A stretch of DNA of 1,877 nucleotides from Escherichia coli (GTDB taxonomy: Bacteria > Pseudomonadota > Gammaproteobacteria > Enterobacterales > Enterobacteriaceae). The notes below the pieces were generated by a model. It was not told the origin of the DNA. It did no database searches and was given only the letters and a program-made list of their open reading frames with translations. The translations under genes and the position numbers were made by a program. Positions 879 to 1,509 of this stretch are shown one piece after another (positions within the stretch are counted from its first letter, which is position 1; the number at the start of each line of letters is the position of its first letter). The stretch lies in the NCBI RefSeq assembly GCF_003334255.1, contig NZ_QOWU01000144.1. One strand, given 5' to 3'.

Positions 879-1301
879 TTAATCCCACCAACAAGTAACC
901 GGATGCATACCCACAGGGACTTCAACCCATCCATGCTCCGTATCTTCTGACCATCCTTCCCAGCACTCATCAGGGGCAATTTCTTCTACAAACCAGCTCT
1001 GAACTTCTTCTGGTGAAGCAGTGGTGATAACTAAAATACTTTCACTAAAGGGCCAGTCTGGGTCATCGAACATCGTAATTTCTACCAAAACATCACTAAC
1101 ATTGTTACGCTCACGTATTTTCAGAAAATGGTGATAGATAGCTTGCGGAGATTGTTCTGGAATCACATTGCAACATATTGAACCATGGATATTATTGTCA
1201 ATAAAAAAATCCTCAAGAGATAACAATGGACGAGGAGTATCAGGATTATTAACATCACCATTGATATTAACAAGTTGGGTAATGCGTTCTAAAGGTGTCA
1301 T
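879..1301 (-). CDS. Hypothetical small acidic protein, 140 aa from the preferred start (the track ORF extends to 1355, giving 158 aa). Trp-rich C-terminus; function unknown.
   Basis: The ORF track gives 879..1355. The in-frame ATG at 1299..1301 is preceded on the minus strand by AGGGAA (forward 1307..1312) with a 5-nt spacer, whereas the ATGs at 1353..1355 and 1326..1328 have no purine-rich SD. The product from the preferred start begins MTPLERITQLVNINGD and ends CWEGWSEDTEHGWVEVPVGMHPVTCWWD. By hand count it has about 26 Asp/Glu against 5 Lys/Arg. The TAA stop is at 879..881. Confidence 0.75.
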   Translation of the reverse strand: MTPLERITQLVNINGDVNNPDTPRPLLSLEDFFIDNNIHGSICCNVIPEQSPQAIYHHFLKIRERNNVSDVLVEITMFDDPDWPFSESILVITTASPEEVQSWFVEEIAPDECWEGWSEDTEHGWVEVPVGMHPVTCWWD

Positions 1302-1509
1302 AATTATTCCCTGAAATAATATATTCATCAAACGAATGACATTGTTTGAATTCATTAGCAGATAAATAGTGACAATTCCATACGTATTATTAGTTTCAAG
1401 AGCATCATAACATGAATGTTAAGCAGGAAAACGTGAGATATTCAGTCAGGCCGGGTCGTTATCCAGACGTTGTTATATTTAATATCATAAATATTTAAAG
1501 GGGTTTGAC
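1302..1509. promoter_or_regulatory. Divergent AT-rich intergenic region, presumed to carry the promoters for both the minus-strand gene pair and the plus-strand gene.
   Basis: A 208-bp non-coding gap lies between divergently oriented starts (1301 minus, 1510 plus). Weak sigma70-like hexamers are present: plus-strand TTGTTA at 1470..1475, and on the minus strand TTGAAA (forward 1394..1399), TTGTCA (forward 1370..1375) and TATATT (forward about 1318..1323). None has convincing -35/-10 spacing. An inverted repeat TCAAAC-N10-GTTTGA lies at 1328..1349. Confidence 0.45.

Follow-up and report, generated by a model that had tools for sequence, protein, structure and literature searches.

Start codon of yfbO in an IS1-flanked segment of Escherichia coli: the third in-frame ATG is the probable start

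Over-extension of a predicted protein at its N-terminus, through use of the longest open reading frame (ORF), is a common mis-annotation of start sites in bacterial genomes. The gene yfbO of Escherichia coli illustrates how such versions persist beside corrected ones. In strain K-12 MG1655, yfbO (b2274) is annotated at 2388635..2389057 as 423 nt encoding 140 aa (NP_416777.2, whose version number is a sign of a revised protein), and the same length is given for the PGAP protein (WP_000188051.1, 'protein YfbO') and the UniRef representative (YFBO_ECOLI). GenBank records also hold a 158-aa form for strains W3110 (BAE76682.1), DH10B, HS, and BW2952 (also ACB03433.1, ABV06697.1, and ACR65002.1) and a 149-aa form, read from the second ATG, for strain TW15901 (EKI18778.1). 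An over-long version represents a protein cluster of 832 members. Only older or automatic records still carry the two longer forms; in them, the same DNA is read from the first or second ATG and 18 or 9 residues that are conserved in no orthologue are added.

Keio mutants of yfbO and yfbL are reported to be resistant to phage N4, with complementation from ASKA plasmids (preprint, bioRxiv 10.1101/2025.09.29.679331). In another preprint, yfbO was chosen as a candidate retron 'blocker', below the significance cut-off, via its genetic linkage with yfbN (10.1101/2020.06.22.160242). A search of full-text literature for 'b2274' returned unrelated papers only.

The window, by which we mean the whole 1,877-nt stretch of E. 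coli DNA analyzed, carries yfbO without any difference in the gene itself relative to K-12, and the start annotated in K-12 corresponds to the third ATG of the ORF here. A segment of about 1,724 nt (77/78-1800) is 100% identical to MG1655 2388136..2389859 and has the same gene order, nuoN-yfbP-yfbO-yfbN. It comprises the 5' three-quarters of yfbP (minus strand), the whole of yfbO (minus strand), and the first 97 codons of yfbN (plus strand). Unlike in K-12, where yfbP and yfbN are not truncated, IS1 ends flank the segment and cut yfbP at its 3' end and yfbN after codon 97 (table 1). The two matching stretches of L001, 5710-5787 and 5019-5095, are the two ends of one IS1 copy, and the end at 1..77 is multicopy in E. 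coli genomes, with about 70,000 matches. In 5,426 complete E. coli genomes, we found no contiguous copy of either IS1 junction. The flanked segment may, speculatively, come from an IS1-rich relative such as Shigella, or it may be an IS1-bounded translocatable or amplifiable unit. The single 'plasmid' match is a chromosomal fragment that has no IS1 flanks.

Table 1. Features of the window, in order of position, followed by the upstream sequence of orthologous yfbO loci ordered by protein identity.
Feature	Position	Strand	Remarks
Terminal 77 nt of IS1	1..77		100% identical to the end of the IS1 copy in L001, 5710-5787
yfbP, 5' part (TPR protein)	78..820	-	Starts at the second tandem ATG; 3' end cut by IS1, ORF reads on into IS1 to 56
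SD-like GAAGGAA of yfbP	825..831	-	AAGGA is 2 nt from the ATG at 823 and 5 nt from the ATG at 820
yfbO coding sequence, best-supported form	879..1301	-	140 aa, MTPLERIT...WWD, stop included; equals K-12 b2274 / NP_416777.2 / WP_000188051.1; homologue alignment begins there
Imperfect inverted repeat	1280..1357		Arms 1280-1301 and 1336-1357, 16 of 22 positions complementary; chance level
In-frame 54-nt 'extension' (MNSNNVIRLMNILFQGII)	1302..1355	-	Most likely untranslated 5' leader; no SD, GC 24%, not conserved
SD-like AGGGAA of yfbO	1307..1312	-	5 nt (TAATT) before ATG3 at 1301
Extended -10-like TGTTATGAT, candidate yfbO promoter element	1404..1412	-	5' of all three ATGs; putative
yfbN, first 97 codons	1510..1800	+	Divergent from yfbO, cut by IS1
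Terminal 77 nt of the other IS1 end	1801..1877		Same orientation as the left end; 100% identical to L001 5019-5095; multicopy
88% orthologue (L004)			ATG1 changed to ATA; SD improved to AAGGA
69% orthologues (L005, L006)			In-frame TAA 2 codons 5' of the conserved start, which has no in-frame start upstream
62% orthologues (L007, L008)			In-frame TGA 3 codons 5' of the conserved start, which has no in-frame start upstream
56% orthologue (L009)			In-frame TGA 7 codons 5' of the conserved start, which has no in-frame start upstream
54% orthologue (L011)			In-frame TAA 9 codons 5' of the conserved start, which has no in-frame start upstream

The reading frame of yfbO offers three candidate starts. 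The minus-strand ORF 879..1355, as given by the ORF list and the sequence, encodes 158 aa with the N-terminus MNSNNVIRLMNILFQGIIMTPLER, that is, MNSNNVIRLMNILFQGII-MTPLER..., and has in-frame ATGs at 1355-1353 (ATG1), 1328-1326 (ATG2), and 1301-1299 (ATG3). A reading of the sequence alone had proposed that the protein starts 18 codons into this ORF, at ATG3, on the grounds that ATG3 is the only one of the three with a well-spaced SD and that the extension has none. Both grounds hold. When the 20 nt 5' of each ATG are hybridized to the 3' end of 16S rRNA, the duplex energy is -5.1 kcal/mol for ATG3, through AGGGAA at 1312-1307, versus -1.4 kcal/mol for ATG1 and likewise for ATG2. The internal start thus has a ribosome-binding site and the upstream starts do not, as is characteristic of a mis-called N-terminal extension. 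An upstream match equal to or better than that of ATG3 is present at 18% of the 93 ATGs in the window (any frame, both strands); the SD of ATG3 is therefore only moderate, and it ranks the three candidates but is no proof alone. The local mRNA fold in a 63-nt neighborhood is weakest at ATG3 (-3.3 kcal/mol, vs. -9.2 and -8.9 kcal/mol for the other two).

The composition of the extension is intergenic-like. Its GC content is 24%, compared with 25.5% for the spacer between yfbP and yfbO and 40% for the body of yfbO, and GC at first codon positions is 0.22 versus 0.54 in the body. Stops make up ∼8% of codons in intergenic DNA here, so an open stretch of 18 codons with ATGs in it is unremarkable.

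Orthologues were consulted as the sequence-only reading had suggested, and conservation begins at ATG3 in both proteins and DNA; conservation of the extension, which that reading had named as its refutation, was not seen. A homologue search with the 158-aa translation as query returned 60 relatives. Full-length relatives that have diverged to 46-69% identity are nearly always 140 aa long and cover 89% of the query, which is all but the extension. In an alignment of 35 sequences, conservation begins at Met19 (158-aa numbering, as throughout), 26 of the 34 full-length homologues have as their first residue the very Met that matches M19 (MTPLERIT...), and M19, L22, and I25 are each at least 90% conserved. 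A few homologues are predicted to be longer, and their N-terminal sequences are mutually unrelated. Across the 34 homologues in the protein alignment, a related extension is found in none outside E. coli.

Predicted protein starts depend on gene callers, and we therefore turned as well to the nucleotide sequences of independent orthologous loci. The closest orthologue, at 88% identity, has lost ATG1 but retains ATG2 and a 39-codon open frame; relative to it, identity is 87% in the extension DNA, where 5 of 18 residues differ, and 93% in the body. In more distant orthologues (69%, 62%, 56%, and 54%), stops interrupt the frame 5' of the conserved start (table 1). An extension that is not conserved and is interrupted in orthologues is again what a mis-called N-terminus looks like. 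At the SD position, where yfbO has AGGGAA, the orthologues have AAGGA, TAAGGAT, or CAGGGATGA. A separate observation concerns the 47% orthologue (L012, about 4940-5000), in which a terminator-like hairpin (aaaaacgggggcatcatgcccccgtttt) of the preceding bioY-like gene contains the sole upstream ATG that is in frame. This hairpin ATG shows how ATGs 5' of the conserved start can originate by chance. Within E. coli, yfbO is an accessory gene, present in 952 of 5,426 complete genomes, and region 1285-1425 has at least 99% identity in 949 of the 952. Where present, yfbO is nearly invariant.

These comparisons bear directly on the two other ATGs as starts. If ATG1 at 1355 were the true or an additional start, an E. 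coli-specific 158-aa isoform with an 18-residue N-terminal extension would be made. The frame is indeed open from 1355, a candidate promoter is located 5' of it, and GenBank holds the 158-aa form, which is what a longest-ORF rule produces, for W3110, DH10B, HS, and BW2952. Against it, ATG1 lacks an SD (-1.4 kcal/mol), lies where the mRNA is more folded, is replaced by ATA in the closest (88%) orthologue, heads an extension of intergenic composition that stops interrupt in orthologues of 69%, 62%, 56%, and 54% identity, and has been dropped by curated sources. We regard initiation there as very improbable. Initiation at ATG2 (1328), which would yield a 149-aa protein, is about as improbable: the 88% orthologue does keep ATG2, and the corresponding protein is deposited (EKI18778.1), but this ATG likewise has no SD (-1.4 kcal/mol), is missing or cut off by stops in orthologues of 69% identity or less, and begins a 9-residue extension to which no homologue has a relative.

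The evidence from SD ranking, orthologues, composition, and curated annotation converges on ATG3, as the sequence-only reading had it. We conclude with high confidence that translation of yfbO begins at the ATG at 1301-1299, with a 140-aa product, and that the leader at 1302-1355 stays untranslated. The 140-aa start was already known, and curators had settled the ambiguity in the same direction. Compared with longest-ORF over-extension in general, the locus shares the upstream in-frame ATG that lacks an SD, the AT-rich leader, and an extension missing from orthologues, and shows no difference. The 18 upstream codons would belong to AT-rich DNA, 5' leader or intergenic, whose frame happens to be open, and the two ATGs in it, arising by chance, would have been picked up by longest-ORF gene calling. 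Ribosomes of E. coli are predicted to use ATG3 only.

The promoter of yfbO is most plausibly sought upstream of all three ATGs. The transcript probably starts 5' of ATG1, and TGTTATGAT at 1412-1404 is a candidate for its extended -10 element. A start near 1397 would put all three ATGs on the mRNA, in which case the choice of start would rest on the ribosome-binding site. The element is the only extended -10-like match in the window, where 0.64 are expected by chance, and the block that holds it is conserved in the 88% orthologue. Another promoter-like sequence, ATGTCA-16-TATGAT at 1511-1484 (minus strand), is also 5' of ATG1. The additional argument that the extension would overlap a presumed promoter is not supported: the number of promoter-like sites is at chance level (5 observed vs. 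3.7 ± 1.7 in shuffles) and the best candidates are 5' of ATG1. One site inside the extension (TTGATG-17-AATAAT, 1331-1303, matching at 9 of 12 positions) was rejected, as it would start transcription 3' of ATG3. In the divergent intergenic region between yfbN and yfbO, the heptamer TTATGAT occurs twice, at 1404-1412 and at 1484-1490 (minus strand). The proximal copy is part of TGTTATGAT and is kept in the 88% orthologue; the distal copy reads TAAGAT there.

Overlap with an inverted repeat had also been raised against the extension. The repeat exists, but it carries no weight as an argument on the start, as the RNA of the region folds no better than shuffled sequences (z = -0.79 for 101 nt and -0.02 for 241 nt). 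The same values weigh on the idea that the repeat, which spans ATG1 and ATG3, forms an RNA hairpin with a regulatory role, in which the real start codon would be hidden. The minimum free energy fold does pair AUGUCAU (about 1340-1334) with the AUGACA of the start. Yet only 16 of 22 positions are complementary, the folding energy is at the level of shuffles, and the pairing is lost in the fold with longer context. We therefore rejected the hairpin, which we consider highly unlikely. The conclusion on the start requires neither the inverted repeat nor the promoter overlap.

The start of the downstream gene, yfbP, presents a smaller ambiguity of the same kind. Tandem ATGs are at 823-821 and 820-818 (minus strand), and the second had been described as better spaced from the SD. 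This is correct: the spacing is 5 nt versus 2 nt, and duplex energies are -4.8 kcal/mol for the ATG at 823 and -5.7 kcal/mol for that at 820. The starts in RefSeq and K-12 are the second ATG (849 nt, 282 aa), and in all nine YfbP homologues, the most distant at 37% identity, one M or V stands opposite it. Judged from sequence, the second ATG is thus the likelier start, a difference of one residue. The homologue alignment shows a strongly conserved motif, GNGDxFGLYWP...HDEW, in the N-terminal domain of YfbP, ahead of the TPR-like part. YfbP has no match in NCBIfam.

The 140-aa protein corresponds to a recognized family. Precomputed Pfam assignments place PF27222 (YfbO) on 59 of the 60 relatives, including the E. 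coli cluster, and the exception is a fragment. A search of YfbO against a local Pfam-A library gave no match, and that library is evidently one without PF27222; searches against NCBIfam and PDB sequences gave none either. YfbO has the family core, which runs from MTPLERIT to the C-terminal CWWD over about 140 aa. In the alignment, P43, F50, F51, N54, G58, I60, V86, W101, and P102 are invariant, and M19, W156, W157, and D158 are at least 90% conserved.

There is a weak hint, from sequence, that YfbO could be an immunity protein of a polymorphic toxin. At L009 (1-2423), on a 7.8-Mb contig, the gene for a YfbO homologue of 56% identity directly follows a gene for an LHH-domain toxin and two immunity-type genes of the SUKH/SMI1_KNR4 kind. 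A toxin gene is beside the YfbO homologue in this one context and in none of six other homologue contexts.

Some use of the upstream ATGs is conceivable at a low level. An mRNA made from the candidate promoter would include ATG1 and ATG2, and minor initiation could occur at them. Ribosomes that also initiate at ATG1 or ATG2, only in E. coli and its closest relatives, would produce a minor long isoform of YfbO with a hydrophobic N-terminal tag of 9-18 residues; we think this improbable, though if true, the isoform could be relevant to the phage N4 phenotype of yfbO mutants. In the accessible portions of the supplements to four studies, namely Cappable-seq (PMC4782308), TRAINSPOTTER N-terminomics (PMC13245402), Conway 2014 (PMC4161252), and E. 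coli/Streptomyces dRNA-seq (PMC4681348), we found neither yfbO nor its K-12 coordinates.

Translation of yfbO from ATG3 is a matter of annotation hygiene only and no discovery. Constructs or structure predictions based on the long forms of YfbO would include 9-18 spurious residues, and the correct N-terminus of YfbO is of practical use given the recent interest in yfbO that followed the phage N4 report.
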